43,385 nucleotides of DNA from a virus (IMGVR_UViG_2778261121_000005:1-43385), one strand, 5' to 3'. Positions 1,807 to 42,055 are shown, counted from the first letter of the stretch. Notes: a model not told the origin generated them from the sequence alone. Program-made: numbers and translations.

Positions 1807-1821
1807 TTAGTATAAAAAAGC
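1807..1821. repeat. att core (O) copy at the tailspike-side junction, flanked by bacterial B' arm and phage P arm
   Basis: TTAGTATAAAAAAGC, reverse complement of the lambda core GCTTTTTTATACTAA; preceded by CGTTTCGCTCAAG (bacterial B' arm), followed by lambda-like P-arm sequence. Confidence 0.9.
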
Positions 1822-1980
1822 TGAACGTGAAACATTAAAAACCATTAATATCAATGTGTTATAATATCTTTAGTCTAAAAAATAGACTGCATAATGCTAC
1901 AAAACACAACATATCCAGTCACTATGAATCAACCACTTAGATGGTATTAGTGACCTGTAACAGAGCATTAGCGCAAGGTG
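1822..1980. promoter_or_regulatory. attP P-arm-like region (Int arm-type / IHF / Xis binding region)
   Basis: AT-rich sequence closely resembling the lambda P arm as I recall it (e.g. ...CAGTCACTATGAATCAAC...TTAGATGGTATTAGTGACCTGTAACAG). Confidence 0.6.
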
Positions 1981-2108
1981 ATTTTTTGTCTTCTTGCGCT
2001 AATTTTTTGTCATAAAAACATGTCGCACTCCAGAGAAGCACAAAGCCTTGCAATCCAGTGCAAAGCTTTGTGTACCTTAGTTTTGTTTCATAGGTAACTC
2101 TGTGTTAA

Positions 2109-2393
2109 CTACGATGCAAGAATCCATACCAATAAGCATCCGATAATTGGGAAAGAAAAATCCAACAAACTTCCCACATCCCACACGCGTGGATCAAAAC
2201 CTCCCCACCACGGCATGTTGACACGTTTCCCTTTCCCAAACTTTTCTATCCAGCGATATTCTGCCTGGGTGTGTTCACGCGCAATGAAGAACGTACAACC
2301 GGCTATCGCACCGTAAGCCCAGTTTCCGGTAAAAAATACCAACCAGTACCTGAGCCGCAAAAGCGCAAAGCGAGTGAAGAAATGGAGTGACAT
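2109..2393 (-). CDS. hypothetical hydrophobic protein between tailspike and att
   Basis: 94-aa ORF from ATG at 2393 (track ORF begins at a TTG at 2396); hydrophobic segments; no convincing SD; sits where P22-like phages carry lysogenic-conversion genes. Confidence 0.3.
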   Translation of the reverse strand: MSLHFFTRFALLRLRYWLVFFTGNWAYGAIAGCTFFIAREHTQAEYRWIEKFGKGKRVNMPWWGGFDPRVWDVGSLLDFSFPIIGCLLVWILAS

Positions 2394-2405
2394 CAATGCT
2401 CTTAA

Positions 2406-4463
2406 TCATGAAACTTCCCCATTGGTTGAAAATATGGCTCCTCCAACTCCAAGTGTATTTCGTGTTGTGCTCAACCTAAGAGGGCTGGAGTCAGAATTAG
2501 AATATCCTGTAGCAGAAATAAAAGATCCTCCACTAATAGTCAACTGCGGAACATCGGCTATATCTGAATAAGTTCTGTCAGCAACAGTATTATTTATAGC
2601 CACATGTGATCCAAAAAAACTTCTTATTGTTTGGTTTTTAACTTTACTTCCTTCAATGGTTATCCTACTACCACAGTCGGCAATAAATCCTGAATCTGCA
2701 TCCAGCGTTGCATTCATAAAAGAAGCTTCAGATCTCTCTACATCAATCCATCTAATATCTTTTGTGGGATTTGCACCAAATACATGACAAATATTAGAGT
2801 TAAACCTTACTCCATCTTGGAGGTGCATTAATTTTTTTATATCTGTACCCCATAGCCTTGGAAAATTAACAGATGCTCCTGCATGGCAATCAAATCCCAA
2901 CTCAGCCCCTGAGATATCTACAGCCTTTCCTGAAATAACAGCACCAGTGTCTGCATTAACGGCTGTTCCACAATTGCGCATATCATTACCAGCAACATCA
3001 ACACAACCCGCACCATCAATACGCACACCAAGTGCACATCCATAAAAACCTTTTTCAATATTTGGTTCAAGGACTTTACCACTTGTTTCTGCATCACTTT
3101 CTTCAACGTCATGTCGTCTTGCATCAACATATGCTGTATGAATGCAGGTTAATCCACGATATGAGCAATGTATAGTTTTATGGTCGCGTATATTAACATT
3201 TGAACCATCTCTTACATTCCACCCTATATAACAATAGCTTGCACTTGACCCCTGAAAATCTGCTTTAACATTATAAATACAATTAACTGACGCAACCGTA
3301 CTCTCTGTGCACCGTTCAAACTTGCTTACAGGCATTGATGCCTTGACATTATTTACCAGTTGCAGGGAAGAGTATCTGCTATAAGAAAAATCACATACGT
3401 AATACCCTTCTGGCATATATGCAGCAACACTTTCCTCATCAGGAGCACATCCGGTATGATATGCACTAATTTTTGCACCAAAACTACCATGAATTCCAAC
3501 GTAGAACTTTCGAGCACCTGAATACGGATAGAAATTAAGTTCAGCTTTTTGAGTTACAATAAATGCACAAACATCGCTATCATCTCTATTTTCTTCGATC
3601 TGAATAGCAAATACAGGACTTTTTGCTGCATCGCAAATGTAAAATAAATACTTGTATTCGTAATACGTTCTAACGGTTTTAGTAAACAAACGAGTGTCAG
3701 AGAAAACCACTGAGTCTTCTGATATTATTTTAATCCATGATAAGTCACATCCTGCTGAAATTTCTATTTGCTCATTGAGCACAAAACCGGAAAGAATTTT
3801 AATTATGCAAAAGCCAATGCCATTTTTCCATAGTGGACGCAGTGCAACAGCCGAGTTTAGAGCATCACTAATAGATTTAAAATTACCATATTCCCCAACT
3901 GTTATTGTGAATGCATACCTGGAATTAAATACTGCGGCACTATCTCCAGAGTTAATAGCTGCAGATATCATGTCATAATTTGATATAAAATCATTTGGCG
4001 TGATTATTTCTGCGTTTTTATTGTGCTGGGTTCTAAGTTTTGAATTTACATGAACACTTTTAACTGCAATACGGGAGTCGTCAACAAGTATTTCATTACC
4101 CTCTGTTGCTAACTCTTGTCTTAACTGATCCGGGTCATACTTCAGCACATTCGGAAAATAGAACTGCTGTGAACCATATGCATCATAAACAGCCATAGAA
4201 TGACCCTGCACAGTAACGAACTTGGCAATCTGTCCGTTATATACCGGATATCCAGCAGCGTTAATGATGATTGGTTGCGAAACAGGAACGTGAGAACCGT
4301 CTTCGTTTTCCACATAAACCTGAATCTGGTTTTCAGGATTTACCGGGTCAGTGTCAATTTTACCGATATAAATTTTTCCATTGGCTACGGCTTTAAAAGA
4401 ACGAGCCATAGTGAAGAGTTGCGAAGGCATACTCACTACAACATTGGCTGTAATGTCTGTCAT
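2406..4463 (-). CDS. tailspike protein with P22 gp9-type head-binding N-terminal domain and divergent receptor-binding domain
   Basis: N-terminal ~110 aa ([11 protein letters not shown]...[33 protein letters not shown]...[14 protein letters not shown]...NVLKYDPDQ) closely matches the P22 tailspike head-binding domain as I recall it; the rest differs from P22. Confidence 0.9.
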
Positions 4464-4595
4464 TTAATTTGCTCCAGATACAAGGAATCGCCGCAGCATG
4501 GCTACGGTTGGTATTTGTTGCATACCGAAATGGTACTATTGTTGATTTGTACAGTAGGTTTTACGATGCCATTCCACCCATTTGGTGAGGCATTG

Positions 4596-4853
4596 ATGAT
4601 GTACAGCAAATACGATGAGGCGCAGTTCCACTTGAGGCTTACGCACGAGTTGCACGCTAAGATTAAGCAACGTGCAAAAATGAATAACAGGTCTATCAAT
4701 TCCGAAATTGTGGCTACGATGGAAGAATCACTCTCCAAACCATCACCTGTAAGCGGGTATCGTGATGAAGAAGAGAGGCTGGCCTCATTAATCTCGGAAC
4801 GAGTAAAAGAAGTTGTGGCTGATATCCTTAGAAAAGAAAAAACCCGCGATTAA
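4596..4853 (+). CDS. mnt: Mnt-like ribbon-helix-helix repressor
   Basis: 85 aa; NNRSINSEIVATMEESLSKPSPVSGYRDEEERLA resembles P22 Mnt (NGRSMNSELLQIVQDALSKPSPVTGYRNDAERLA); SD GGTGAGG upstream. The track ORF extends upstream without support. Confidence 0.8.
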   Translation: MMYSKYDEAQFHLRLTHELHAKIKQRAKMNNRSINSEIVATMEESLSKPSPVSGYRDEEERLASLISERVKEVVADILRKEKTRD

Positions 4854-4867
4854 GCGGGTTTAGTTGG

Positions 4868-5089
4868 TTAGTTATCAAAAAGTCCGTACGTTTCTTCTTC
4901 TTCAGGTGTAAGGGGAAGAATCTCTACTCTATCTATAGATACCTTTTCAATGTACCCATGAGGTCTACTTAAAATTAAAGCTCTCTCATGCCACAGAACT
5001 CCAAGAATGTGATACCTTCCAGCATCGCCTTTTACCCTGGCCCTTCCTTTGATTCTTGGCGGCATAATGCCATATTTTTTCTTTGCCAT
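4868..5089 (-). CDS. hypothetical small protein (73 aa)
   Basis: ATG overlaps the stop of the upstream gene (TAATG), suggesting translational coupling in the ant operon. Confidence 0.5.
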   Translation of the reverse strand: MAKKKYGIMPPRIKGRARVKGDAGRYHILGVLWHERALILSRPHGYIEKVSIDRVEILPLTPEEEETYGLFDN

Positions 5090-5817
5090 TATGCAACATT
5101 ACTCCCATGAATCAGGTGTTGTAGTGCTTTAACACCTTCCGCATTGTAGCGGAATGCTTCCACCTGTTTGCTGGAATGCGCAGATTTATCCAGGAAGAAC
5201 TTACCGTACTGCTCAGTTTTGAGGTTGTTTGCGTTAGCAATGCGACCAATCTTGTTGGCCGTTACTCCAAGCTGCTCTGCAACCTCCCCTGCTGAGTAGT
5301 AATGCTCTTCTATTGCTGGAAGAGGTATTGCATTAAAACCAACGATCGGGTTGATTATGCTTGCTGCCGCAGTCTGCTTTGCTTCCGGCGCAAGATTTGG
5401 CATCAGATCGAACAGATTGGTAACAGCTTCAACCGTCATTTTCAGTGTTCGCGCTTGACGATACTCAATAAGTCCACTCGCTGATTTACCGCTTTTAATG
5501 TGCTCTTCTTGCATACTTTCAAGTTGGTCTACCAGTGAGCGGCGAACGGCTTTTGACTCGCGAGCGGCAACTCGCAATGCTTGCTTGATTGACATCTCAA
5601 TGATAACCATCGAAGTTTTGTTCGCTTTTTGCACTACACTTTTTGTGTAGTGCTCTCCATCCAATTCATCTTCAATTTTCTCGATGAATTTGTTATTACG
5701 AACCTCCGGCTCACCGCACTGTCTACGAGCCTGATTTACCATCTCAAGCAGGCGCTGGCTGTCAATGGTTTTATCCGTGACAACGGATCCGATGTTTGCT
5801 ACATTCTTCAAAGTCAT
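5089..5817 (-). CDS. antirepressor-like protein (Rha-like N-terminus, KilA-C/ANT-like C-terminus)
   Basis: 242 aa from internal ATG with SD AAGGAA; C-terminal segment YYSAGEVAEQLGVTANKIGRIANANNL resembles KilAC-type domains. Domain assignment is from memory. Confidence 0.5.
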   Translation of the reverse strand: MTLKNVANIGSVVTDKTIDSQRLLEMVNQARRQCGEPEVRNNKFIEKIEDELDGEHYTKSVVQKANKTSMVIIEMSIKQALRVAARESKAVRRSLVDQLESMQEEHIKSGKSASGLIEYRQARTLKMTVEAVTNLFDLMPNLAPEAKQTAAASIINPIVGFNAIPLPAIEEHYYSAGEVAEQLGVTANKIGRIANANNLKTEQYGKFFLDKSAHSSKQVEAFRYNAEGVKALQHLIHGSNVA

Positions 5818-5905
5818 TAGGCATTCCTTATGTGGTAGTAAGGGTGTGACATAGGCCGCCAGCAGCACACTGGCGGTTTTCTTTTTGCGCCGTCCGGCGC
5901 ACCAA

Positions 5906-6532
5906 TCAATGAATCCATTCCTCGCCGCGAAGTTTTGCCAGCATTGGCTGAGCGTTCTTTACGACAAAATTGTTGGTATCAAGATTCTTCATTTCACGAA
6001 GAAGTGATTTCTTGGTTTCTTCTGACATGTAGCGAGTCTCATATGCAATATCGTAAATCCTTCCTGAAAGCTCAGAACCAATTTGCTTCATTCCTGGGTA
6101 GATGTGTTTGCACATTTGTTGACTCTTCTCCATCCACAATTGTAAGTAGCAGAGATTAACCAGTTCTTCGTCAGTAAACTGTTTTGCAATCGGTGAGCAT
6201 TCTGCCTGCCGATCCAAAATATCCAGCACCCAGCGGCGGAACTCTTTGGCTACCGGAGTGCGAGCAAACATCGCGATTAGGTGGGCACCGCGTAGTGAGA
6301 AAACTCGCACTTTTTTGCGATAATTTCCTGAGGTACTCACTTCGAGTACCTGAGTCATTCCGGCGCTAAACTCATCGTTATACTTGTTATAAATCATTGT
6401 TACTGCACGACTATTTGCGTATTTAAGTGCAGATGCAATATTAGATGATGTAAACCAAACACCATGCATATCACGGGTGGGCACCAACTCAACTCCGTGG
6501 AAGTTGTAATCTGATTTTGCTACAATATTCAT
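5906..6532 (-). CDS. ant: antirepressor-like protein with Bro-N-type N-terminal domain
   Basis: 208 aa from ATG with SD AAGGAAA; N-terminus (NFHGVELVPTRDMHGVWFTSSNIASALKY) resembles Bro-N domains; immediately downstream of the arc-like gene as in P22 immI. Confidence 0.6.
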   Translation of the reverse strand: MNIVAKSDYNFHGVELVPTRDMHGVWFTSSNIASALKYANSRAVTMIYNKYNDEFSAGMTQVLEVSTSGNYRKKVRVFSLRGAHLIAMFARTPVAKEFRRWVLDILDRQAECSPIAKQFTDEELVNLCYLQLWMEKSQQMCKHIYPGMKQIGSELSGRIYDIAYETRYMSEETKKSLLREMKNLDTNNFVVKNAQPMLAKLRGEEWIH

Positions 6533-6605
6533 GTTAGTTTCCTTGCATACGGTTACTGACATAGAGGCCCGGTTTGTGTTCGCGCACTTCCGGGCTTCAC
6601 TATTT

Positions 6606-6779
6606 TTACTGGGCATTAGCTCTTTCCTCTCTCAGGCTTTTAGCCAGTCGCTGCACAATCGCAGAGTTGATAGAAATTCCATCCATTTCAGCAACACGTC
6701 TAATCTCCTCCTTCATTCGCGCTGGCAAACGAAGCTGGAAACTTTGACTTTTACGACCAGTGTAAAGCACATCTTTCAT
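6606..6779 (-). CDS. arc: Arc-like ribbon-helix-helix repressor
   Basis: 57 aa from ATG with SD GGGAGGA; FQLRLPARMKEEIRRVAEMDGISINSAIVQRL matches the RHH beta-strand/helix pattern. Confidence 0.7.
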   Translation of the reverse strand: MKDVLYTGRKSQSFQLRLPARMKEEIRRVAEMDGISINSAIVQRLAKSLREERANAQ

Positions 6780-6890
6780 AAGTAATCCTCCCACAATGAT
6801 ACCAACTTGGTTCTAGAACCAATTTAACACCATTTATTTTGATGTCAAGTTGGTGCTATTGTTTAGCGAACATCTTTACGTTGAGGTCAT

Positions 6891-7211
6891 ATGAGCAAGT
6901 TCCCTAGTCATGAAATGGATAGGTTCAATATCAGGCTTCCTGCAGGAATGCGGGATGCTATAGCTGAACGAGCCAAACGTAACGGCAGATCAATGAACTC
7001 AGAGATTGTTCAGATACTGGAAGATGCCTTGAATGCAGAAAATACACTCGGGGAAATAGCAGATAAAATCAACAGCGTCTCGGTTCCGCTAAATGTTGAT
7101 GCGCTAGTTCAACTTCAAGCCCAGGTTATCGCCATGCAAAAAGAAATACAGGAAAAGTTCAGAGAGCAGAACGAAAAGTTGAGAGAACTGCTAAACAAAA
7201 AACCCACCTGA
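6891..7211 (+). CDS. ribbon-helix-helix (Arc/Mnt/MetJ-type) transcriptional regulator, divergent from arc-ant
   Basis: 106 aa; FNIRLPAGMRDAIAERAKRNGRSMNSEIVQILEDAL is an RHH signature; C-terminal coiled-coil-like tail. Confidence 0.75.
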   Translation: MSKFPSHEMDRFNIRLPAGMRDAIAERAKRNGRSMNSEIVQILEDALNAENTLGEIADKINSVSVPLNVDALVQLQAQVIAMQKEIQEKFREQNEKLRELLNKKPT

Positions 7212-7236
7212 CGGTGGGTTAATTTTTGCCTTTTTT
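7197..7236 (+). terminator. rho-independent terminator (possibly bidirectional)
   Basis: AACCCACC-tgac-GGTGGGTT stem followed by T-rich run; A-run on the other side. Confidence 0.7.
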
Positions 7237-7309
7237 GGACCATATTGACTACTCATAAAATGAGATCAATATTTAATCGCCCAATAACGGGTGCATGTTG
7301 AGGTATATC

Positions 7310-7489
7310 ATGGCGAAAAAACCAGGTGAAAACACAGGAAAAAACGGCGGAATATACCAAGAAGTTGGCCCGCGCGGAGGTAAGAAAGACAATTTTGCCA
7401 CCGTCAAGGACAACGAAAGGCTTCCGCCAACAACAAAGCCAGGTCATGGCTGGGTATTAGATAAGCGAACTCCAGACAGCAAAAAGTAA
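7310..7489 (+). CDS. small hydrophilic Gly/Lys-rich protein (59 aa) with its own promoter and terminator
   Basis: SD GAGGT 5 nt before ATG; upstream TTGACT-N17-AATATT with inverted repeat CTCATAAAATGAG in the spacer; terminator right after the stop. Confidence 0.5.
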   Translation: MAKKPGENTGKNGGIYQEVGPRGGKKDNFATVKDNERLPPTTKPGHGWVLDKRTPDSKK

Positions 7490-7495
7490 TAATCA

Positions 7496-7519
7496 AGCCG
7501 GGTCACTCCGGCTTTTTGA
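7496..7519 (+). terminator. rho-independent terminator
   Basis: AGCCGG-gtcact-CCGGCT followed by TTTTTG. Confidence 0.65.
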
Positions 7520-7868
7520 TATGTCGCTCGCAGAACTCAACAAGCCTGCTCATTAAGTAGCAGTAAGTCTCGTTAGCTCTTCCTGGTTCAACATCAACGC
7601 CGACCCTTGAGCAGATATCGAATGCCATGTGAGCGCACTCATGGGCAATAGTAGATAGTTTGCCATTGAACACACCTATCACATGCAAAACACCATTCTC
7701 GCTGCTCATTGTATGAGACGCTCCGTTGGCATCCGAGTCCTGCACGTCCACGCCAAGTTTTTGATGCAGGCGTTGCCATTCTGGAAAGTCTCTGCAAAAC
7801 ACAATCGTACCGCTCTCAAAGAGCGGTACGAGCATCTTTGGTACGTTTCCAATGTTAACTTTTTTCAT
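7503..7868 (-). CDS. hypothetical protein with HExxH zinc-metallopeptidase-like motif
   Basis: 121 aa from internal ATG; contains IAHECAHMAF (HExxH) with downstream acidic residues. Confidence 0.5.
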   Translation of the reverse strand: MKKVNIGNVPKMLVPLFESGTIVFCRDFPEWQRLHQKLGVDVQDSDANGASHTMSSENGVLHVIGVFNGKLSTIAHECAHMAFDICSRVGVDVEPGRANETYCYLMSRLVEFCERHIKKPE

Positions 7869-7898
7869 GGTATCCTGCACAAAACTAAGGAGGTTGGT

Positions 7899-8126
7899 GT
7901 GAAGCGATGGTTCCTCATAATTACTGTTTTCGCGATCATTTACACTATTTTCCCTGCATTAAAAGCACCAATGCAAATAATTTCACTAGCAATAATTGCA
8001 ATTGGTGCTTTCATTGCAGTATCCGTACTTGTGTTTAAGGTTTTAAAGTTTTTAGTTTGGCTATCAAAAGATGATGGATGCAAAGTTCATCAAGAAAAAG
8101 AAGGCAAAATAACCAAAGTTGACTAA
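7899..8126 (+). CDS. small membrane protein (two predicted TM helices)
   Basis: GTG start 5 nt after a perfect AAGGAGG; hydrophobic stretches WFLIITVFAIIYTIF and IISLAIIAIGAFIAVSVLVF; converges on the ejection-protein gene with a 3-nt stop overlap. Confidence 0.55.
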   Translation: MKRWFLIITVFAIIYTIFPALKAPMQIISLAIIAIGAFIAVSVLVFKVLKFLVWLSKDDGCKVHQEKEGKITKVD

Positions 8127-10246
8127 CTGTCACTAACGAGCCATGTAATAATCCCAGTGCGAGCAATGGTTTTTGCTTCATCTGTTGATAGGGTTTTCTC
8201 CCATCTCTTAAATGCCCCAGATTGCATCAGTTTCCTTTCTATTGCGCGTCTCACTTCTGCTCTGTCTACTGGTGCGTTTTGCAGGCGAAATAACATTGAT
8301 TTAAACTCAGGAGAAGACAGTAGAGCATCAGCAGCCTTTATCCTGCTTGTTTTCCCTGACATCAATGCGGACGTTATCACCCCTGTAGCACCTACACCAG
8401 GAAGACCAGATAAGCTTGTAACACCTTCCGCCGCAGCAGCTTTTGAGGCTATTCCATAAATTTTTGCTAGACTACCCTTTTCCTTCAGAAAGTTATTAAC
8501 TTGCTGATCCACAAGGCTGCTAGCATACTGCTTACCAGTATTGAGTCTATTCATAGCCTTAGCTGCTTGATAAATCGTATCAAGGCGCTTTGATGCATCT
8601 GTGCCAATAGCATCACGGAGAGCCTTCATATTGGCCCCATTGCGTGACATTCCGTTATACCATTTTACAAATCCATCAACCCCTAATTGCTGACCTGGTG
8701 ATTTAGCATAGCTGGTAAATGCTTTATTCATTGAGGTGAGCGCAACTTCCTGCCGCATATCCTTTGGAATTGACTTCATTAATTGCCTAAAGTCACCACC
8801 GTTTCCTTTTGCCATATTAACAACGGCACTTTCAACTTTTGGAATTGCTGATTGCTGAAGTTTTCTACCCAAAACGGTTACGGCATCATCTTCAATGGAT
8901 TTTCGTTTTTTTACCAACTCCTTACCAAGCGTCCATAACTCCCCTGCGCCATATTTTTCTGCGACAGCCTGTTGGTCATCTGTTATGGCTGCATATAACT
9001 TTTTAAGAACACCTGTTTCTTCATCCTTGAATGGGCCAGAGCCTTTGCCAATAGCTTGCCCAACCTGCTTTCTAGCGAGATCTAAACGCCCATACGTTGG
9101 CAAGGTGTTTGGATCAAGTCGGTTCAATGTCCGCTTCATTATTGGAGATAATTCATCAATTCCACCTATGTCATCAGCAAAATCCTCTAAAAAATTCAAT
9201 GTATTGGTTGCCTCAATACGGTCTCTTACTGGAACCTTTTCGGCAATTTTGTTGTAGATGTTATCTGACTGATTTTGTAATGATGAAATGGTTTTATCAA
9301 AATTATCTGCAAGCCTGTCAGAAACCAGTTGCTTATCAAGGTTTCCCCCAAATGAAGTTATCATTTCATCAGCTTTTCTTCCTAATTCAGTAATAAAGCG
9401 CTTATGCGCCTCACTAATCTCTGTTCCAGGGAGACTTGCCACTGCATTATCAAGAGCCCTGACAGCAGGATTATTAGAGATCATTCCTGGAGTGGCATAA
9501 TTTTCCAGTTCTAGCTCACGGATGGCATTTATCGCGTTAAAATCAGGATTAACTTCATCAGCGAAACCTTGAATAGCTCGTTGCCCGCCAATAAATTTAT
9601 TATCCATTGCGCCAGCAGCTTTCTTTAACGTTGCTTTAGATGATTTACTCCCCATCCCTACGGATGAGCGATAAATATCCCCGGCACTATTTTTAATTTT
9701 TCCTGCAATCTTCCCAAGCGCTGGACCAACAATCTCTGCTACAGGGCCAGCCACAGCGCCAATAGCAGCGCCGGAAGCAACATCGCTATTTGTTCCATTG
9801 GCTACAATAGCCCCTTCTCCAGCACCAAGCCCTGCGGCGGCAGCCAGCCTTGCCGCCCCTTTCGGAACCTGAGAAATAATCCCACCACCACTAACAAATG
9901 GCGCTGCTTGTCCAACGAACTCACCAACATCTTGTGCGGTTGATGGTTTTGCCGCTAACTTCTGCTGTAGAGACTGAATTGCGGCTTGCTCTTCTGGTGT
10001 CATATCCTGAAATAGACCAACACCTTTACCAACATCCATCAATCCACTGAGAACGCCATACATAAAACGGTCGAAACCGTTAGCATTATTAACAACATTT
10101 TCCTGTCTGGAATTTTCCTCTGGTGAAACCAAAGGTGATTGCTGCTGCTCTGGTTGGGAATCAAGCACAAAACCATCAGGAAGCTGTGAGTTATCAGGCT
10201 GATTATCGAGAACAAATCCTTCGGGTAAACCTACATCGGTTGCCAT
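8123..10246 (-). CDS. ejection (DNA transfer) protein, P22 gp16-like by synteny
   Basis: 707 aa, last gene of the 7-20-16 type block downstream of gp20-like; Gly/Ala-rich segment; N-terminal tandem LP(E/D)GFVLD(N/S)QP repeats. Confidence 0.6.
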
Positions 10247-11574
10247 TGTCCGTTCCTATAAATGAGTTTCTGACCAGTTTTAGGGTTCGTTGCCGTCGCG
10301 CCTTCTGATATCCCACTTGGCGCAGCTTTTGTCTGCCCATTACCACCTTGTGGTGTAGGCTGCGCTGGGACATCGTCAAATAGCTTGGCCTTCCTTCTCC
10401 CTAAGCTTTTTTTCAGCCCTTGAGGAATAGTATCTCCATACGTATCCAGATATTCGTCTACCTGCTGGTTAAACTGCTGCCCCATAGCGTTGGCGTTAAT
10501 TTTGGCTGCGTTAACAATGTTATCCCTCGCTTCCTGTGACAAGCCATTCCCTGCATTAAGCTGGTCTACATATCCTTTTATCTGCCCCCATATGCCATCA
10601 GAGCGCATGACCTGAACCTGTTCACCTTCGCGAACAACTGACTGAGGGTCGAGAGACTTCATGTAATTAAAGATAATCCCAAGTTGGGCAGCGCCAGTAT
10701 TTACCTTGCTAAGGGCTTGCAGAGAGTTTGCCGCCGCTCTGACAGAGTTATAATTTTTGCCAAAATTGGTAATGTCAGAATTTAATCCCTTAATTAAGTC
10801 TGCTGACGGCTTACCTTTTTGCCCCAGCTCCATTAGCTTCAATCCCATCTCATCTGAGTGAATTTGTGCTCGCTGAGCCCTGTCTAGTTGAGCGTTCTGG
10901 ATATTTGCCCATCCTCTCGCGTTCTCCATGTCAGCCTGACGGATGCTTTCATCCAATCGCCCTTTCTCTAGTTGGCGACCAACCATCTTATCCTGATAAT
11001 CCAGCATTTTATCCGGACCAACAGCCCCTAGCGTCATAGTAGTCAGCATGTGTGATAGCTGCTCTGGATTCTGGATACCTGTCTGAATCATCCAGTCAGC
11101 ATTAGCACCAACGCGATTTAACCTGTCCTTGTTGTCAGTAATGAATTTACTGTAGGCTTCCGGTCCCTGAGAAAGAGCGACGTTAGCCCTCATGGCTAAA
11201 TCGCCCATATCGTTGCGTTGCTGCTCATTAAGACCGGAAAATGCCTGTTGTGCCTGTGCAACAAACGCTGGATTTTCCTGGGCAAACTTAAATAGTCCCG
11301 ATGGGTCACCAGAAGCCCATGCATCAGCGTGAACCTTATTGAACGCACTAATAGCTTTCTGTTGCTGTTCCTGATTGTAAATATCAGCAACTCCAGCCAG
11401 ACCACGTAACGCGGTCAGACCAACGTTATTTGCACCTGAGCGAGCCAGTTCATTGTTTTCGCGGATCAGACCAAGCGTTGCGTTAATGTCGCTTGCCTTT
11501 GGCGCATTCTCATTTTGCGTACCGATGCCAGCCAGAAAACCACCAGAATTAATACCCTGTTGCCACGTAGCCAT
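10231..11574 (-). CDS. ejection protein, P22 gp20-like by synteny
   Basis: 447 aa in the conserved gp7-gp20-gp16 order. Confidence 0.6.
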
Positions 11575-11583
11575 GATTACCCC

Positions 11584-12276
11584 TTAAAACAACGAGCCAA
11601 GCAGACCAAGACCAGCACCGATACCAGCACCCCACGGAGTTGATAGCTCGAGAGCACTGGCTATGCCACCACCCAAAAGCGCACCGGATGCAGCACCACT
11701 AACCCCCTGCTGCAATGCTGACGGTCGGTTGGCGTTTGCCGCAGCCAGCGCCGCGCTTTGCTGTGAAATCTGACTCATGTTGTTGGCATATGTTTGCCCG
11801 GCGTTTGCCTGCCCCTGAAGAGCGCCAAGACCGATATTTGCCAGGTTGTTGTAATTGTTCATTTGTCCAGATAGCCATTGCTGACCAAGCGTTGGTGCGA
11901 TTGTTGCTAACTGATTACTGGTTGCGGTGGAACCCAATCCACCTGTTGCTTCCGCTGCCGCCAGACTCTGATAGCGAGCCTGACCAGCAAGGTCTTTATA
12001 CTGCTGAGAGTTGTAATACTGGTTAAGTGCCTGACCTTGCCCCTCCAGAGACGATAAGTTCTCGAGGCTGCCGACATACTTCTCAGCCAGAGGAGTAAAC
12101 GGCTTCAGGTTGTTCATGATGGTGTTGAACTGCTGATTTTGCAGGTCTGCGGCATACTTCTGAGCTTCTGCTGCATACTTTGCGCTTTTATCAGAGCTGC
12201 CACCTTTCCCGCCTTTTTCAGGGCAATAAGGTTCCTCGCCGCGCAGTTTTCTGCCCAGCTTAAATGCATATAACAT
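11584..12276 (-). CDS. ejection protein, P22 gp7-like
   Basis: 230 aa (P22 gp7 is about the same size); Gly/Ala/Gln-rich with C-terminal hydrophobic segment; synteny. Confidence 0.65.
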   Translation of the reverse strand: MLYAFKLGRKLRGEEPYCPEKGGKGGSSDKSAKYAAEAQKYAADLQNQQFNTIMNNLKPFTPLAEKYVGSLENLSSLEGQGQALNQYYNSQQYKDLAGQARYQSLAAAEATGGLGSTATSNQLATIAPTLGQQWLSGQMNNYNNLANIGLGALQGQANAGQTYANNMSQISQQSAALAAANANRPSALQQGVSGAASGALLGGGIASALELSTPWGAGIGAGLGLLGSLF

Positions 12277-12278
12277 GG

Positions 12279-12734
12279 CTATCTCCCGTGATTCAGGAAG
12301 TCGATTAGTTCTTCGCGTGTGGCGCTGTAAAACGTCACGTCATCCACGCCTTTGAAGTATTTCTTGATGGTTCCTACACGCTTAAGGCCAATCATTGCGC
12401 AGTACATCTGACCGTGGCGGAATTTGCGCGCAGCGAACGATGTGACGCACTGAACGGTGGTGTTAGTCAGAATGTATCGCCAGAACGCCAGCCCGATTTC
12501 CTTGCTGAAGCCGCGAATCTCTGGCAGGTACATGGCGTGGCAATCGAATGTCAGCGGCTGAATCTCCTGATAGTAAACAATGCCGCCGAACTGCCCGTGC
12601 ACGTTCACCTCAAAGTAACGGCATTCAGGTTTGTAGTCGTATCCATCACCGTTGTTGCTACCAGCGATAATGTCAGGGTGATTTCCGACTGCTTCGATCA
12701 GGTCGATGTTTCGCGTTGGTTTGAATGTAATCAT
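12279..12734 (-). CDS. virion assembly protein, P22 gp14-like by synteny
   Basis: 151 aa between the tail needle and gp7-like genes. Confidence 0.55.
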   Translation of the reverse strand: MITFKPTRNIDLIEAVGNHPDIIAGSNNGDGYDYKPECRYFEVNVHGQFGGIVYYQEIQPLTFDCHAMYLPEIRGFSKEIGLAFWRYILTNTTVQCVTSFAARKFRHGQMYCAMIGLKRVGTIKKYFKGVDDVTFYSATREELIDFLNHGR

Positions 12735-13435
12735 CAGTCAATCAGCCCATGTAATCTAAGTGCCGTTTCAAGCGCCAGAATACGCTGCCGCGCCTGCTGC
12801 AAACCTGTAGCGAGAGCTGCGACTTCGGATTGTGTGTACGTAGTGCCGACAGTGTATGACTGGTTAGCGTTGAATGAGCCAAGAAGTGGCGTACCTGTGG
12901 CTGCAGTCCATCCGGTATTTCTTGCTCCAACAACCTGAATTCCATCAACTGAATATGATGTTTTTACATCCAGCGGTGACTCAAGAGACTGCAATTCGGT
13001 TACGGTTTTCGATACGTAATCACTCTTAATGCCAGAGACATCGTTTTCTACGTCATCCAGTCTTTGGTCAACAGTGACCAGATGCGCCTGAATATCGATA
13101 ACCTCATCCAGCAAGTAATCAACATCGCTACGCAGTACGACTATCTTCCCTTCGGCAGTTGTTAACCTGACCTCAAGGAGATTTATCGCTTTTGTGTTTG
13201 CGGAGATTCTTGCATCGTGGTCAGCCAGTTCGACATCCTGCTCATCGTTTTTTACCTGGGCATCATAGGCGCCCTGACCAGCCTGATTTGCCTTCCCGGC
13301 AATTGCGCCAACATCAGCACCCTGATTTATGACATACAGCAGGTAAGACTGGCTGAATATATTGCGTGGCAAAATTGAAGCATCAAGGCGCGTAGCCTGA
13401 ACCGCGACAGGATTATTCAGTGATGAATCCGCCAT
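12734..13435 (-). CDS. tail needle protein, P22 gp26-like
   Basis: 233 aa; N-terminus [68 protein letters not shown] matches P22 gp26 as recalled. Confidence 0.9.
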
Positions 13436-14853: not shown

Positions 14854-14862
14854 TTATTCACC

Positions 14863-15324
14863 TCACGTACTCGGATCATCTTTCTCGATGTAAAACCGAT
14901 TCCACGTAAACGCGCTTTTGTTACCACTACCGCGAGGCATGTCATTTCGCCGCTCAAGTGGTGGTATTTTGGTTAAAGCGATACAGATTGTTTGATATGC
15001 ACTGTCAGCAGCGGTAAGGAGAGCGTCTGACGGCTGAATGACGTTATCCATGCACACTTGCACAGCGAGTTTCAAAGCGACGCCATCATTTGCCCATGCA
15101 GGGATACCTGAATCATCGTCAGGTAACGGCATGATGCCGTTTTCTGTATCAGCAAACTGATATCCAAGCTCGATACCTTTAGCCTGCCATGCTGCCATCA
15201 TGTCTTCGAGGTCATTAATGGCATCTTCAATTGCCTGAGGGTCAGCATCTGTCAACGTGGCATTGGAATACAGCCCGGCTTTTCGTAAAGCCTTTAGAAC
15301 GAGATCACCCTTCGTTTTTGCCAT
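14863..15324 (-). CDS. head-to-tail adaptor protein, P22 gp4-like
   Basis: 153 aa directly after coat and the small ORF, before gp10-like. Confidence 0.7.
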   Translation of the reverse strand: MAKTKGDLVLKALRKAGLYSNATLTDADPQAIEDAINDLEDMMAAWQAKGIELGYQFADTENGIMPLPDDDSGIPAWANDGVALKLAVQVCMDNVIQPSDALLTAADSAYQTICIALTKIPPLERRNDMPRGSGNKSAFTWNRFYIEKDDPST

Positions 15325-15493
15325 CTTCTTCCGCCTTAGCCACTTTTTGCTTCGTTGCGGTTTCTTCAGGAGTTTTTACCCAACCTTTTTTCAGGTGAGA
15401 TTTAACTTCTTCGTCATCAACAATGATGTAATCGACAGCAAACTGACCACAGGTGATCATGTTGCCCGGCTTATAGAGCATTGTTCGTGCCAT
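15305..15493 (-). CDS. hypothetical small protein (62 aa) between coat and gp4-like genes
   Basis: Internal ATG with SD GGGAGAAG; a small ORF at this position is common in P22-like phages. Confidence 0.45.
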   Translation of the reverse strand: MARTMLYKPGNMITCGQFAVDYIIVDDEEVKSHLKKGWVKTPEETATKQKVAKAEEDGKNEG

Positions 15494-15534
15494 TGTCTTC
15501 TCCCAATAAAAATGGGGCCGAAGCCCCACCTAAA

Positions 15535-19989: not shown

Positions 19990-19990
19990 A

Positions 19991-28460: not shown

Positions 28461-28477
28461 GACTTCCCTCTACCCCA

Positions 28478-28512: not shown

Positions 28513-28533
28513 CAAGCTCAGTGATGTAGATGG

Positions 28534-29910: not shown

Positions 29911-30728
29911 GCAATCCCCCTGTCTGCAAACTTCCCTTCCCGTACTCCCGTTAACGAATCTTCCCTCAGCAGGTAATCAAAATCAGCTGTCCAGCCCGTG
30001 TCGTTGTCTCCGAAGTAAAACGGCTTGGCCTGATGCACAAACGCCCTGACATACGCTCTGAAACCGTCCACGTTTGGCGTTTTCAGTTGCGGGATGATTT
30101 TCTTCAGGCGGCGTTTGCGTTTCTCGTTGACCGCAACAGCGTGTGGCAGTCTGTCACCGACTTCGGTGTTGTAGGCGTTCAGGAAGGATTCGTAGTCGAT
30201 TCGTTCTGCCTTGCGACGTTCAGGTTTAACCTGCCCATCGCCACCCCCGTTAGGGGGTAAGGGGGTATTTGTATTTATTGTCTTTTGTATATTGTCTTTT
30301 GTGTTTAGCTGACTTGGCTTATACCCATTAGCCGACTTGGCTAATGTTTTATTAGCTGTTTTAGCTAATGTTAAGCTGTCCTGGCTAATCCACTGAGAAA
30401 CCACCTTGTTCACTCCGATTTTCACGCCATCAGCAATGAGGAATTTACGCTCGATAAGCTGGCGCTTGGCAGCGCAAACATGAGTGTGATGAATACCTGT
30501 CATGGCTGCTATCTGCGTGTTTGTGAGTCGATCCATCGGCTTATTGAATCCGTATGTCTTGCGCATGATAGCGAGCATCACCTTCAACTGCCGGACGGTT
30601 AAATCAGCCATCAGCAGACTGTCGGTAATCTCGTTAGCAACGCGCATGAAACCATCTTCGGTATCTGCCACGCGATGCTCCACGACCTCAAGTTGAGGCC
30701 TGTAATCAGCTAACTTAACGACGCCCAT
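29907..30728 (-). CDS. replication initiation protein (lambda O / P22 gp18-like) containing the origin
   Basis: 273 aa; N-terminal O-like DNA-binding region; iteron-bearing linker encoded at 30240..30380. Confidence 0.8.
30276..30372. repeat. candidate replication origin iterons inside the initiator gene
   Basis: Tandem ATTGTCTTTTGT x2 (30278..30303), TTAGCTGACTTGGCT / TTAGCCGACTTGGCT (30305..30319, 30328..30342), repeated TAGCTAATGTT motifs; adjacent G-rich CCCCCGTTAGGGGGTAAGGGGG. Confidence 0.65.
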
Positions 30729-30876
30729 GTTTCACTCCTGCTTTGGCTAGTCTGTAAACACCAACAAGGCGCTCTGCGAACGCCCTGTTATTTGCTGCGG
30801 CTACCACTAATCCCTCAGGTGAATCAGGGTGTCGAATCTCTTCTTTTTCCTGGTATTTCTTACGACGTTTTGTCAT
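30715..30876 (-). CDS. hypothetical small basic protein (53 aa) between cII-like and initiator genes
   Basis: ATG with SD AGGAG at 6-nt spacing; stop overlaps the initiator start; not in ORF track (under 60 aa). Confidence 0.4.
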   Translation of the reverse strand: MTKRRKKYQEKEEIRHPDSPEGLVVAAANNRAFAERLVGVYRLAKAGVKHGRR

Positions 30877-30908
30877 AATTACTCCTGTGGATTGATCCAG
30901 TAATTCCC

Positions 30909-31205
30909 TCAGAATTGCATATCAATTTGCTTAAAATCCTCGGCGGCCACCGGGGATTTTTTCTTTGTGATTTCATCAAGCGCATACTTAAAAGCCCTGC
31001 TAATCGGACTGATGTCTGATGCCATTCCGAAAGCACACAAGACCGAAGCAATAAATCTCCAGTCCGTTCTGCTTATCTTCGATTCATGACAGCCAATCAT
31101 CTTTGCCAGACCGCGCTGGGTAAGCGTTGACAGGTTGATAAGTAAATCTGTTTCTGCGCGATCAACGTCGCGCTGTGATAGTTTGCTGTAACTTGTTTGT
31201 TCCAT
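30909..31205 (-). CDS. cII: CII-like transcriptional activator
   Basis: 98 aa immediately downstream of cro and nutR; HTH segment ...GLAKMIGCHESKISRTDWRF... analogous to lambda CII. Confidence 0.75.
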   Translation of the reverse strand: MEQTSYSKLSQRDVDRAETDLLINLSTLTQRGLAKMIGCHESKISRTDWRFIASVLCAFGMASDISPISRAFKYALDEITKKKSPVAAEDFKQIDMQF

Positions 31206-31314: not shown

Positions 31315-31530
31315 TTAAGCGGCTTTGTGTTCCGGCGGGAACACGTCATCAAGACTGACTTTTGCGCCTAACTTGTTTAGGCACGCAACAAGAGCACGGC
31401 ATGTTTTAAGGTCTGGGAAGCGACGACCAGATTCCCAATGTCCGATAGCTCCCTGTGTGCATCCAACCGCCTTAGCAAGTGTTGTTTGAGAGATATTCAG
31501 TGACTCTCGATATTTTCGTAGGTTGCTCAT
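31315..31530 (-). CDS. cro: Cro-like repressor (HTH)
   Basis: 71 aa from internal ATG with SD GGAGGG; HTH QTTLAKAVGCTQGAIGHWESG; divergent from the repressor gene. Confidence 0.8.
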   Translation of the reverse strand: MSNLRKYRESLNISQTTLAKAVGCTQGAIGHWESGRRFPDLKTCRALVACLNKLGAKVSLDDVFPPEHKAA

Positions 31531-31554
31531 ATGCCCTCCATAGTAACCATGAAA

Positions 31555-31631
31555 CAATAATACGATATGTACTTTTGGAATGCAAACAAAAAATACATCT
31601 TGTGCATGGATGGTTTTAGTACATAGCGTAA
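31555..31631. promoter_or_regulatory. right operator/promoter region (OR, PR, PRM) with GTAC-type operator sites
   Basis: Inverted near-identical 12-mers TACGATATGTAC (31561..31572) and GTACATAGCGTA (31619..31630); minus-strand PR candidate TTTGCA-N18-TATTAT overlapping the first site. Confidence 0.6.
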
Positions 31632-31641
31632 TAATAAGGAT

Positions 31642-32301
31642 ATGAAAATGAAATGGTATGAACTGGCTAGATCCAGAATGAAAGAGCTCGGCATAACTCA
31701 AGAGAAGTTAGCTGAAGAGCTTGGTATGACGCAGGGTGGAATTGGTCACTGGTTGCGCGGATCTCGTCATCCATCTCTTGACGAGATTGGTGTGGTGTTT
31801 AAATACCTTGGTATTGATAACGTCTCATTCAACCACGACGGTACATTTTCACCTGCTGGCGAATACTCATCTGCCCCCGTTAAAAAACAATATGAGTACC
31901 CTGTTTTTTCTCATGTTCAGGCCGGGATGTTCTCGCCTGAGCTTAGAACCTTTACCAAAGGTGATGCGGAGAGATGGGTCAGCACAACCAAAAAAGCCAG
32001 TGATTGTGCGTTTTGGCTTGAAGTTGAAGGTAATTCCATGACCGCACCAACAGGATCCAAGCCAAGCTTTCCTGACGGAATGTTAATTCTCGTTGACCCT
32101 GAGCAGGCTGTTGAGCCAGGAGATTTCTGCATAGCCAGACTTGGCGGTGACGAGTTTACCTTCAAGAAACTGATCAGGGATAGCGGTCAGGTGTTCCTAC
32201 AACCACTAAACCCGCAATATCCAATGATCCCATGCAATGATAGCTGTTCCGTAGTAGGGAAAGTTATCGCCAGCCAGTGGCCTGAAGAGACATTTAGTTA
32301 A
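31642..32301 (+). CDS. cI: prophage repressor (CI / P22 C2-like, LexA-type S24 peptidase domain)
   Basis: 219 aa; N-terminal HTH ([25 protein letters not shown]); C-terminal domain resembles P22 C2 ([13 protein letters not shown]...LVDPE...FKKL...PLNPQYPMI). Confidence 0.9.
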
Positions 32302-32426: not shown

Positions 32427-32455
32427 TTGACTCAATAAAGTACACATCGTACTAT
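32427..32455 (+). promoter_or_regulatory. PL promoter with overlapping OL operator
   Basis: TTGACT-N17-TACTAT; operator-like AGTACACATCGTACT (32439..32453) shares the GTACA.A.CGTA pattern with the OR sites. Confidence 0.65.
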
Positions 32456-32501
32456 TTAGCCATCAGCAGGAAGCTGGAAGCCAAACGGAACAGATTGGCA
32501 G

Positions 32502-32535
32502 GCTCTTTAACTTCGATGGGGCGCTGACAAAGCGC
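32502..32535 (+). promoter_or_regulatory. nutL (boxA + boxB)
   Basis: boxA-like GCTCTTTAA then boxB hairpin GCGCTGACAAAGCGC (matches P22 boxB as recalled). Confidence 0.75.
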
Positions 32536-32654
32536 AAACAGATACCAAACGAGATGGGTTTGGCGGTGATGTGAATTGCAGCTGCAACGACAGCAACCAG
32601 AAGATCAGCACCTGGCGCATCACCACCAAAGCCATTTCACATGAGGAAAATATC

Positions 32655-32963
32655 ATGACGGTAATCGTGTACGGAAAATCAACATTTGCAGGAAATGCCA
32701 AAACTCGCCGTCATGAGCGGCGCAGAAAGCTGGCTATCGAGCGTGATGCTATATGCAACATCATCGATTCGATCTTCGGCACAGACAGTGAGGAACCTGT
32801 TCAGGAAGCCCCGAGAAAGCGTTTAAGCATTTCTGAAAAAGCAATATCACTCGGCATCATTAGCAAATCAAATACAGATGCGAATAGCGGAAGCGTTTGT
32901 TTGCCTGAAGTCGCACTGTATGCTGCTGGTTACAGAAGGCAAAAACTAATTACAGCGAGGTAA
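32655..32963 (+). CDS. N-type antiterminator (P22 gp24-like)
   Basis: 102 aa MTVIVYGKSTFAGNAKTRRHERRRKLAIERDAICNIIDSIFG...; arginine-rich motif; SD GAGGAAAA. Confidence 0.85.
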   Translation: MTVIVYGKSTFAGNAKTRRHERRRKLAIERDAICNIIDSIFGTDSEEPVQEAPRKRLSISEKAISLGIISKSNTDANSGSVCLPEVALYAAGYRRQKLITAR

Positions 32964-32965: not shown

Positions 32966-33244
32966 ATGAAGCCTAGCATAACAATCAAGCCAGCGAGAGA
33001 TAATAGCAGGAACCGCCGCAGAGAGGCCAGGAAGGCAGAAAGAGCAGAGAAGGAAAACAAGAGCCGGGAGGAGAGAAAGGCAGAGATTTTGGAAAAAGGA
33101 GGATTGGCTGCCGTGAGGGGTGAAAAAGCAGCTGAATTAGCAGTAGCTCACGAAAAGACAGAGATTGACAATAATTCTGGTGGAGATGCAATGTTTAAAG
33201 TTGTCAATCACGCCCATCAACGAAACCCCAAAAAGAAATGGTAA
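32966..33244 (+). CDS. hypothetical Lys/Arg/Glu-rich protein (92 aa)
   Basis: ORF starting 3 nt after the antiterminator stop; highly charged; followed by a terminator. Confidence 0.45.
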   Translation: MKPSITIKPARDNSRNRRREARKAERAEKENKSREERKAEILEKGGLAAVRGEKAAELAVAHEKTEIDNNSGGDAMFKVVNHAHQRNPKKKW

Positions 33245-40310: not shown

Positions 40311-40610
40311 ATGGCCTGTTCAACATTCAACCCTCTAACGTTACAGAAATACCAGCCAGACCCTGAAGATTTATGCTCACTGTGTGGCGGAAATCATGGC
40401 AAAGCCGCCATGATCGAATGTAAGGACAAAATCCACATTTGCCTTAATTGCGTTGATGTCCTCGTTGATATCAAAAATGAGAGAGAAGATAAAAAGCGTA
40501 GCGAGGCTGTTCGCGCCTTAGATTCATGGATGCGAGATGGGTATAGTGCTGCGCAAATTTATGACTTAGCAATATCAAAAGGCGAAATACCAGGAGTGCG
40601 CATCGAATAA
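40311..40610 (+). CDS. hypothetical Cys-rich protein (zinc-ribbon-like)
   Basis: 99 aa from ATG with SD GGAG (alternative ATG at 40299); CSLCGG...HICLNC cysteine pairs. Confidence 0.5.
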   Translation: MACSTFNPLTLQKYQPDPEDLCSLCGGNHGKAAMIECKDKIHICLNCVDVLVDIKNEREDKKRSEAVRALDSWMRDGYSAAQIYDLAISKGEIPGVRIE

Positions 40611-40649
40611 GACGTAACCAATATTCGAATTGAAGAACTGAAAGAACAC

Positions 40650-40676
40650 CAAGCCGCCTGATGGCGGTTTTTTCTT
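40650..40676 (+). terminator. rho-independent terminator upstream of xis
   Basis: CCGCC-tgat-GGCGG followed by TTTTTTCTT. Confidence 0.7.
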
Positions 40677-40700
40677 GCGTGTAATTGCGGAGACTTTGCG

Positions 40701-40919
40701 ATGTACTTGACACTTCAGGAGTGGAACGCACGCCAGCGACGCCCAAGAAGCCTTGAAACAGTTCGTCGATGGGTACGCGAGTGCAGGATATTCCCACCAC
40801 CGGTTAAGGATGGAAGAGAGTATCTGTTCCACGAATCAGCAGTAAAGGTTGACTTAAATCGACCAGTAACAGGTAGCCTTTTGAAGAGGATCAGAAATGG
40901 GAAGAAGGCGAAGTCATGA
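40701..40919 (+). CDS. xis: excisionase (lambda Xis)
   Basis: 72 aa MYLTLQEWNARQRRPRSLETVRRWVRECRIFPPPVKDGREYLFHESAVKVDLNRP..., near-identical to lambda Xis as recalled. Confidence 0.95.
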   Translation: MYLTLQEWNARQRRPRSLETVRRWVRECRIFPPPVKDGREYLFHESAVKVDLNRPVTGSLLKRIRNGKKAKS

Positions 40920-41967
40920 GCGCCGGGATTTACCCCCTAACCTTTATATAAGAAACAATGGATATTACTGCTACAGGGACCCAAGGACGGGTAAAGAGTT
41001 TGGATTAGGCCGAGACAGGAGGATAGCAATCACTGAAGCTATACAGGCCAACATTGAGTTATTTTCAGGACACAAGCACAAGCCTCTGACAGCGAGAATC
41101 AACAGTGATAATTCTGTTACGTTACATTCATGGCTTGATCGCTACGAAAAAATCCTCGCCAGCAGAGGAATCAAGCAGAAGACACTCATAAATTACATGA
41201 GCAAAATTAAAGCAATAAGGAGGGGTCTGCCTGATGCTCCACTTGAAAACATCACCACAAAAGAAATTGCGGCAATGCTCAATGGATACATAGACGAGGG
41301 CAAGGCGGCGTCAGCCAAGTTAATCAGATCAACACTGAGCGATGCATTCCGAGAGGCAATAGCTGAAGGCCATATAACAACAAACCCTGTCGCTGCCACT
41401 CGCGCAGCAAAATCAGAGGTAAGGAGATCAAGACTTACGGCTGACGAATACCTGAAAATTTATCAAGCAGCAGAATCATCACCATGTTGGCTCAGACTTG
41501 CAATGGAACTGGCTGTTGTTACCGGGCAGCGAGTTGGTGATTTATGCGAAATGAAGTGGTCTGATATCGTAGATGGATATCTTTATGTCGAGCAAAGCAA
41601 AACAGGCGTAAAAATTGCCATCCCAACAGCATTGCATGTTGATGCTCTCGGGATATCAATGAAGGAAACACTTGATAAATGCAAAGAGATTCTTGGCGGA
41701 GAAACCATAATTGCATCTACTCGTCGTGAACCGCTTTCATCCGGCACAGTATCAAGGTATTTTATGCGCGCACGAAAAGCATCAGGTCTTTCCTTCGAAG
41801 GGGATCCGCCAACCTTTCACGAGTTGCGCAGTTTGTCTGCAAGACTCTATGAGAAGCAGATAAGCGATAAATTTGCTCAACATCTTCTCGGGCATAAGTC
41901 GGACACCATGGCATCACAGTATCGTGATGACAGAGGCAGGGAGTGGGACAAAATTGAAATCAAATAA
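40897..41967 (+). CDS. int: tyrosine integrase (lambda Int)
   Basis: 356 aa, near-identical to lambda Int as recalled (MGRRRSHERRDLPPNLYIRNNGYYCYRDPRTGKEFGLGRDRRIAITEAIQAN...); overlaps xis. Confidence 0.95.
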   Translation: MGRRRSHERRDLPPNLYIRNNGYYCYRDPRTGKEFGLGRDRRIAITEAIQANIELFSGHKHKPLTARINSDNSVTLHSWLDRYEKILASRGIKQKTLINYMSKIKAIRRGLPDAPLENITTKEIAAMLNGYIDEGKAASAKLIRSTLSDAFREAIAEGHITTNPVAATRAAKSEVRRSRLTADEYLKIYQAAESSPCWLRLAMELAVVTGQRVGDLCEMKWSDIVDGYLYVEQSKTGVKIAIPTALHVDALGISMKETLDKCKEILGGETIIASTRREPLSSGTVSRYFMRARKASGLSFEGDPPTFHELRSLSARLYEKQISDKFAQHLLGHKSDTMASQYRDDRGREWDKIEIK

Positions 41968-42040
41968 TGATTTTATTTTGACTGATAGTGACCTGTTCGT
42001 TGCAACAAATTGATAAGCAATGCTTTTTTATAAGGCCAAC

Positions 42041-42055
42041 TTAGTATAAAAAAGC
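42041..42055. repeat. att core (O) copy at the int-side junction, flanked by phage P' arm and bacterial B arm
   Basis: TTAGTATAAAAAAGC, identical to the copy at 1807..1821; preceded by lambda-like P' arm, followed by AGGCTTCA (reverse complement of bacterial TGAAGCCT). Confidence 0.9.

Follow-up and report, generated by a model that had tools for sequence, protein, structure and literature searches.

A predicted lambdoid prophage combining a lambda integration module with a P22-type virion at att-lambda

The viral sequence IMGVR_UViG_2778261121_000005, whose whole length of 43,385 bp we refer to as the window, carries phage genes between two bacterial genes, ybhB at 1240-1716 and ybhC at 42102-43385, both on the plus strand. 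ybhB belongs to the PEBP family (Pfam PBP) and marks the bio side of att-lambda, while ybhC encodes a pectinesterase-like lipoprotein (Pfam Pectinesterase) and marks the gal side, in agreement with RefSeq annotation of matching genomes. The window runs opposite to the usual K-12 map, with ybhB on the left and ybhC on the right. The segment at 1807-42055 is very probably one lambdoid prophage with a P22-type short-tailed virion, located at att-lambda between ybhB and ybhC. It spans 40,249 bp (40,234 bp of phage DNA plus a duplicated 15-bp core), and its GC content is 46.9% compared with 51.8% in the flanks.

Each end of the element bears one copy of the 15-mer TTAGTATAAAAAAGC, at 1807-1821 and 42041-42055, forming a direct repeat. 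This 15-mer is the reverse complement of the lambda att core GCTTTTTTATACTAA, which is annotated at lambda 27724-27738. It occurs exactly twice in the window, and a search for further copies with one mismatch found none in the window and none across 100 shuffles. The exact match between the two ends is limited to 15 bp on both sides; the next four bases past the core, CAAG at one end and CAAC at the other, correspond to the B' and C' core-type half-sites, respectively. Following the lambda convention, the attR core region (P-O-B') occupies 1803-1823 on the minus strand, with B' at 1803-1809, the overlap at 1810-1816 and C at 1817-1823, and the attL core region (B-O-P') occupies 42037-42057 on the same strand, with C' at 42037-42043, the overlap at 42044-42050 and B at 42051-42057. 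An Rfam scan at gathering thresholds and a tRNA scan of the whole window gave no matches, so the insertion site is not an RNA-gene att site.

Outside the cores, CGTTTCGCTCAAG precedes the left copy and AGGCTTCA follows the right copy; the longer outer-flank reads end in CCCGTTTCGCTCAAG directly before the left core and begin with AGGCTTCAACGG directly after the right one. An empty site was reconstructed by joining 1240-1821 to 42056-42700, giving 1227 bp. This reconstructed attB is 100% identical, in one piece and over all 1227 bp, to the ybhB-ybhC region of E. coli LF82, NRG857C and GPEC1186, and 3493 of 5426 complete E. coli genomes have the site without interruption. When a query across the left junction (1500-2420) was used, the alignments of empty-site genomes ended at query position 322, corresponding to 1821 in the window, the last base of the core. 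Since these alignments stop there, the crossover is placed inside the 15-bp core.

The inner flanks, when joined and reverse-complemented, are collinear with lambda 27471-29169 (NC_001416). The int side (40610-42055) is 98.4% identical to lambda and holds P'3, P'2, P'1, H', C', int, xis and the PI box; the P-arm side (1803-2076) is 88.7% identical. Site names and consensus sequences follow the lambda att literature and are backed by the int-binding features in GenBank. The P arm covers 1822-1956 on the minus strand, as judged by alignment to lambda 27583-27723 and to the attP of the isolated phage JEP4 and by motif coordinates. Within it lie, all on the minus strand, the H2 IHF site (1849-1861, TATCAATGTGTTA), X2 overlapping the Fis site (1879-1893, a 2-nt variant of the lambda sequence), X1 (1901-1913, identical to lambda) and the conserved P2 (1916-1925), H1 IHF site (1927-1939, AATCAACCACTTA) and P1 (1946-1956). 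The P' arm, also on the minus strand, covers 41964-42040 and is identical to lambda except for one base next to C' (GGCA to GGCC); it comprises P'3 (41964-41974), P'2 (41975-41984), P'1 (41985-41994) and the H' IHF site (42003-42015, TATCAATTTGTTG), each again on the minus strand. All three IHF sites, H2 included, fit the consensus WATCAANNNNTTR, and the arm-type sites P1, P2, P'1, P'2 and P'3, along with the core-type sites C, C', B and B', all lie at lambda-equivalent positions. Beyond the P arm, the tI/sib hairpin and the T-run after it (1968-2002, plus strand) are identical to lambda except for a 1-nt insertion, with a strong predicted hairpin (z = -5.75 for 1960-2100). In the prophage tI/sib stands apart from int, and in the excised circle the two are rejoined.

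The divergence on the P-arm side includes a stretch of ~80 bp, window 1822-1900 against lambda 27640-27720, which takes in X2/Fis and the surroundings of H2. The reconstructed attP, with this variant P arm included, is contiguous in the free phage JEP4, where its core lies at 20227-20241. Furthermore, many E. coli genomes match the P arm at ~95% identity in the left-junction query. Its presence in JEP4 and in many E. coli genomes suggests that the variant P arm is an allele widespread in nature. The P arm of lambda itself departs from the sequence found here, in JEP4 and, at ~95% over the matched stretch, in many att-lambda prophages, and it may be the minority allele.

The original prediction had placed identical 15-bp cores at these two positions, with bacterial attB arms outside them and lambda-like P and P' arms inside, and had proposed alignment to an empty att-lambda site as a check. 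All of this was borne out: the two cores are the only copies, the outer flanks read as it had quoted them and give a restored site 100% identical to that of LF82, the known protein-binding sites could be located in both inner flanks, and the alignment breakpoint at 1821 falls within the core.

Both recombination proteins are encoded next to attL. int (40897-41967, plus strand) encodes 356 amino acids (aa) with the Pfam domains Arm-DNA-bind_1 and Phage_integrase, and 353 of the 356 residues are identical to lambda Int; the changes are D118N, H164P and I248V, and the catalytic residues R212, K235, H308, R311, H333 and Y342 are all kept. xis (40701-40919, plus strand; Pfam Exc) encodes 72 aa, 71 of them identical to lambda Xis, with the single change G59S. 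By comparison, P22 Int is essentially unrelated to the resident Int (24% identity over 152 aa, E = 0.001).

The control signals expected for these genes are present as well. A PI promoter box of the form TTGC-N6-TTGC (TTGCGTGTAATTGC; 40675-40688, plus strand) lies just upstream of, and overlapping, the xis start, within the block that is 98.4% identical to lambda. An exact TTGC-N6-TTGC box, as in PRE, was looked for at the cII start and not found there; a TTGC-N6-TTGT box occupies the PRE position, overlapping the cII start at about 31183-31196. Another TTGC-N6-TTGC box lies antisense inside Q (25378-25391, plus strand), as for lambda paQ. It is therefore plausible from these boxes that the divergent CII-like activator uses lambda/P22-type tetranucleotide repeats, and activation of PI is assumed on the same grounds. 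Further left, a PL-like promoter (TTGACT-17-TACTAT; 32428-32456) and nutL, with boxA at 32503-32511 and a P22-type boxB, GCGCTGACAAAGCGC, at 32521-32535, were read directly from the plus strand; we take this boxB to be identical to the P22 nutL boxB. The N gene, within 32428-32963 on the plus strand, matches phrog_271 and has a P22 gp24-type arginine-rich motif. PL, nutL and N precede the early-left operon, whose last genes are xis and int on the plus strand.

From this arrangement a conventional lambda cycle can be proposed. During integration, Int together with host IHF would have synapsed attP (P arm, C-O-C', P' arm) with bacterial B-O-B', and strands would have been exchanged inside TTTATAC, the 7-bp overlap in the common 15-bp core, with attR (P-O-B', 1803-1956) and attL (B-O-P', 41964-42057) as the products. 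An SOS response would lead to cleavage of the LexA-like cI and, with the P22-type N acting as antiterminator at nutL, transcripts started at PL would extend into xis and int. Recombination of attL with attR by Int, Xis, IHF and Fis would then yield a circle with attP as in JEP4.

The remainder of the element was annotated by PHROG and Pfam scans of 60 prophage open reading frames (ORFs). A P22-type virion assembly operon (8123-21843, minus strand), with PHROG matches that are nearly all full length, encodes TerS, TerL, portal, scaffold, coat, gp4, gp10, the gp26 needle, gp14 and the ejection proteins gp7, gp20 and gp16 in P22 order. Its DNA is 95-96% identical to the Lederbergvirus phages E212, CUS-3, Kapi1 and JEP4, and no long-tail genes (tape measure, tail tube or sheath) were found among the ORFs scanned. 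The 685-aa tailspike (2406-4463, minus strand) has a P22-type N-terminal head-binding domain (Pfam Head_binding, 224 bits; phrog_5662 full length), and its DNA is 97-98% identical to the tailspikes of JEP4 and of a P22-like prophage in strain EC332. Between tailspike and attP lies a 95-aa hydrophobic ORF (2109-2396, minus strand; phrog_1443), which gave no Pfam or NCBIfam match. The same slot is filled in JEP4 (JEP4_21) and EC332 and holds the gtrABC O-antigen conversion genes in P22. The 95-aa ORF is a candidate lysogenic-conversion or exclusion gene.

The region between tailspike and virion operon (4500-8126) resembles P22 immI, with Arc/Mnt-like repressors, antirepressors and small ORFs of unassigned function. 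Three ORFs encode Arc/Mnt-like repressors (4200-4853, in its C-terminal part; 6606-6794; 6891-7211), and two different antirepressors are present (5089-5868, 259 aa; 5906-6616, 236 aa). The segment 7195-7901 has 97% DNA identity to P22 13828-14535. At the position of P22 sieA (7683-8126) we also observe a 75-aa ORF of unassigned function, with a PHROG match that covers residues 73-147 only.

On the other side of the virion operon, the minus strand carries a lysis cassette with 93% DNA identity to lambda S-R-Rz (Rz, 23507-23944; endolysin, 23941-24417; holin, 24401-24724), followed by the Q antiterminator (25215-25703; PHROG). Profile matches identify, also on the minus strand, a nin region with an N6A-methyltransferase (in 25694-31205), a DnaB-like helicase (28534-29910), an O-like initiator (29907-30728) and the CII-like activator (30909-31205). 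The immunity region (31315-32301) contains cro (about 31315-31532, minus strand) and a cI-type LexA-like repressor (31642-32301, plus strand), the C-terminal half of which is 94% identical in DNA to lambda cI. The early-left genes comprise N, ral, cIII, RecT, a Mu-Gam-like protein and Ea-type small genes. Lambda-alignable DNA amounts to ~6.7 kb (att/int/xis, lysis genes, nin, part of cI and ral), all outside the lambda head and tail genes, and P22-alignable DNA to ~10.5 kb. The early region is an ordinary lambdoid mosaic.

Directly downstream of N, a 92-aa arginine-rich ORF (32966-33244, plus strand) matches a PHROG family named 'Nun-like transcription termination factor' with E = 1.5e-29, and its terminal residues, FKVVNHAHQRNPKKKW, resemble the C terminus of HK022 Nun. 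A tblastn search with this ORF against the phage collection found no match, with low-complexity filtering the probable reason. The block of N and the Nun-like ORF recurs with 99.5% DNA identity in DH5alpha, a strain with phi80-derived DNA, and the RefSeq label there is hypothetical only.

Outside the prophage, a solo IS200/IS605-family tnpB (1-1131, minus strand; 376 aa) was recognized by Pfam OrfB_IS605, Cas12f1-like TNB and HTH matches and by NCBIfam guided_TnpB (369 bits). TnpB belongs to an RNA-guided endonuclease family, and here its gene stands immediately upstream of ybhB, with 1132-1239 between them. No tnpA is in view within the window, which starts at the tnpB stop codon; any omega-RNA region would fall off the window. 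CFT073 and many other genomes have the same neighbour (InsQ/TnpB) beside ybhB; it is absent in EC332, where ybhB abuts bioA.

Integration modules of this kind are widespread. The int-attL-ybhC junction is covered to at least 80% in 1543 of the 5426 complete E. coli genomes (about 28%), and the junction of ybhB, attR, P arm and 95-aa ORF, typical of the P22-like end, is present in at least 29 genomes, EC332 among them. The P-arm end finds matches in the P22-like phage isolates JEP4, Gally, Huey and vB_EcoP-720R6, the first two of which also match the int side. Over the genome as a whole the best relatives, E212, CUS-3, Kapi1 and JEP4, cover at most ~60% of the queried prophage half, which makes the element a typical lambdoid mosaic. 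No phage record reaches 80% over either half, and none of the 5426 genomes reaches 80% over the left-end 4.6 kb. The lambda site has been described as a heavily used intergenic hotspot, with P22-like prophages at about five E. coli sites (Bobay et al., PMC3603311). A 2026 preprint (bioRxiv 10.64898/2026.05.19.726188) shows that phiHS3, a P22-like podovirus of the proposed genus Hueyvirus, forms lysogens by integrating upstream of ybhC, undergoes spontaneous excision and can be induced with mitomycin C; it was placed in a clade with CUS-3, JEP4 and 720R6.

An exact 44-mer of the P' arm was also compared with GTDB representative genomes, yielding 19 loci, of which two Escherichia matches look like real prophages. 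Most of the loci (L008, L012, L016 and others) are low-coverage contigs, several of ~48.4-48.5 kb, or very short contigs, and the genera include Shewanella, Pseudomonas, Oceanobacillus and Bradyrhizobium. The off-genus loci almost certainly reflect public assemblies contaminated with lambda control DNA or cloning vectors. With just two prophage-like Escherichia matches, the GTDB scan says little on host range.

How firmly the prophage is bounded depends on more than its repeat. By an arithmetic estimate, ~0.9 pairs of 15-bp direct repeats are expected by chance in 43 kb, and the window also holds other exact 17-mer repeats, so that exact repeats of 15-17 bp can arise in this way; the repeat alone is thus not improbable, and the weight lies in the lambda-core identity, the host arms and the restored empty site. 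An unrelated repeat, with the true junctions elsewhere in a larger composite island or tandem elements, would leave it to coincidence that the repeat is the lambda core itself, that cutting exactly between the copies restores a 100% identical empty site and that the joined inner flanks form a known phage attP, and we regard this as having next to no probability. We reject tandem or composite elements in view of the single int, the single phage gene set and the presence of just two cores. On sequence evidence, the structure and the crossover site are those left by lambda Int-mediated recombination of attP with attB.

Whether this lambdoid prophage can still excise is a separate matter, and from its intact parts and its relatives we consider excision competence likely; induction and particle production we infer in turn. 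Several points weigh against such a reading. Missense defects in essential genes could be present undetectably. The X2/Fis site differs from lambda by 2 nt (TATGTAGTCTGTTTT to TATGCAGTCTATTTT), and the spacer between X2 and the core, around H2, has diverged from lambda. The resident CII-like protein has only 33% identity to lambda CII. Moreover, phiHS3 is likened to the element by description, and the same attP and int in phiHS3 are an assumption. The differences in the P arm and in CII could also belong to a correctly bounded but cryptic prophage, in which point mutations, regulatory mismatches between modules (such as a non-lambda CII acting on the lambda PI, or a P22-type N meeting foreign terminators) or the altered X2/Fis site would block excision or plaque formation. 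The exact mosaic is also without an isolated counterpart in the phage and complete-genome collections searched, as would suit a defective element. Against this, the LexA-like repressor, cro, cII, N/nutL, Q and the replication, lysis and packaging genes are all full length, ORF lengths agree with the JEP4, EC332 and P22 orthologues and ORFs are full length against PHROG profiles or relatives, and no insertion sequence elements or frameshifts were seen within the prophage among the about 60 ORFs examined. Int and Xis are essentially those of lambda, the variant P arm occurs in JEP4 and three other isolated P22-like phages match that end, and the prophage size of 40.2 kb fits the 38-46 kb of P22-like genomes. 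A defective prophage seems improbable to us. It is unlikely, if conceivable, that the element is built for late or poor excision and serves mainly as a platform for lateral transduction, in which pac-initiated headful packaging in situ would begin at the TerS gene, cross the late genes and attR and enter ybhB-bio before excision. Packaging would indeed be expected to run toward attR and ybhB, the direction of the late operon, and lateral transduction has been reported for the P22-like phages phiHS3 and phiHS4 (bioRxiv 10.64898/2026.05.19.726188), the former upstream of ybhC. However, early excision is the usual outcome when lambda-type Int and Xis are expressed from PL, the sequence gives no sign of delayed excision, and the packaging start is a predicted one. 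More speculative still, and in our view quite improbable, is that the ~80-bp P-arm stretch constitutes a functionally distinct attP allele that alters Xis/Fis dependence and excision timing; in a pac-type P22-like phage such a change might promote packaging in situ and lateral transduction of the neighbouring bio region.

The element is mainly of value for annotation, as it provides exact prophage ends, the anatomy of attL and attR and a clean example of lambda integration with a P22-type virion at a site where natural E. coli often carry a lambda-int junction. That lambdoid phages swap integration modules in mosaic fashion has been known for decades. The original prediction had described an intact-looking Int and Xis, from which it judged the element probably able to excise, and a podovirus-type virion, and had seen in their pairing the extent of module exchange. 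Int and Xis are indeed full length, 99% identical to those of lambda and catalytically conserved, and the virion gene set is the full P22-type one in P22 order; the exchange itself is real but hardly notable, being the normal state of lambdoid phages. A lambda integration module on a P22-like virion is common and already documented in isolated phages and dozens of sequenced prophages, and the exact mosaic is absent from the collections searched, as for most lambdoid prophages. Current understanding is unchanged.

Comparison with individual relatives places the element within this continuum. The EC332 P22-like prophage (NZ_AP039429, 1,573,080-1,612,430) shares the insertion site, int, xis, attL, attR, tailspike and 95-aa ORF, together with most virion genes at 95-98% identity, but its early region has a Rad52-type recombinase, a toprim primase and other immunity genes, and no tnpB stands beside ybhB. 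JEP4 (MT740315, Lederbergvirus) shares attP with the variant P arm, the tailspike and the small downstream ORF at 97% identity and many virion genes, while ~55% of the prophage aligns with it and the terminase, gp16/gp20, immI, immunity and recombination modules differ. In phiHS3, an O-antigen-ligase-like conversion gene stands at the place of the 95-aa ORF.

The two namesakes of the mosaic contribute complementary parts. P22 (NC_002371) has the same virion gene order and families, with gp10, gp26, gp14, gp7 and gp20 at 81-83% DNA identity, the same N/nutL type and DnaB-like helicase and an attP likewise between tailspike/conversion genes and int, but its Int belongs to another tyrosine-recombinase lineage with another attP core and target, and it carries gtrABC instead of the 95-aa ORF. 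Lambda differs in the ~80-bp P-arm stretch and the one base next to C', in its head and tail genes, which the prophage lacks, and in its cII, N, replication and recombination genes. What the prophage has in common with lambda is the int-xis-attP-sib module: the 15-bp core and half-sites, P1, P2, P'1-3, H1, H2, H', X1, tI/sib, the PI box and the ybhB-ybhC target.

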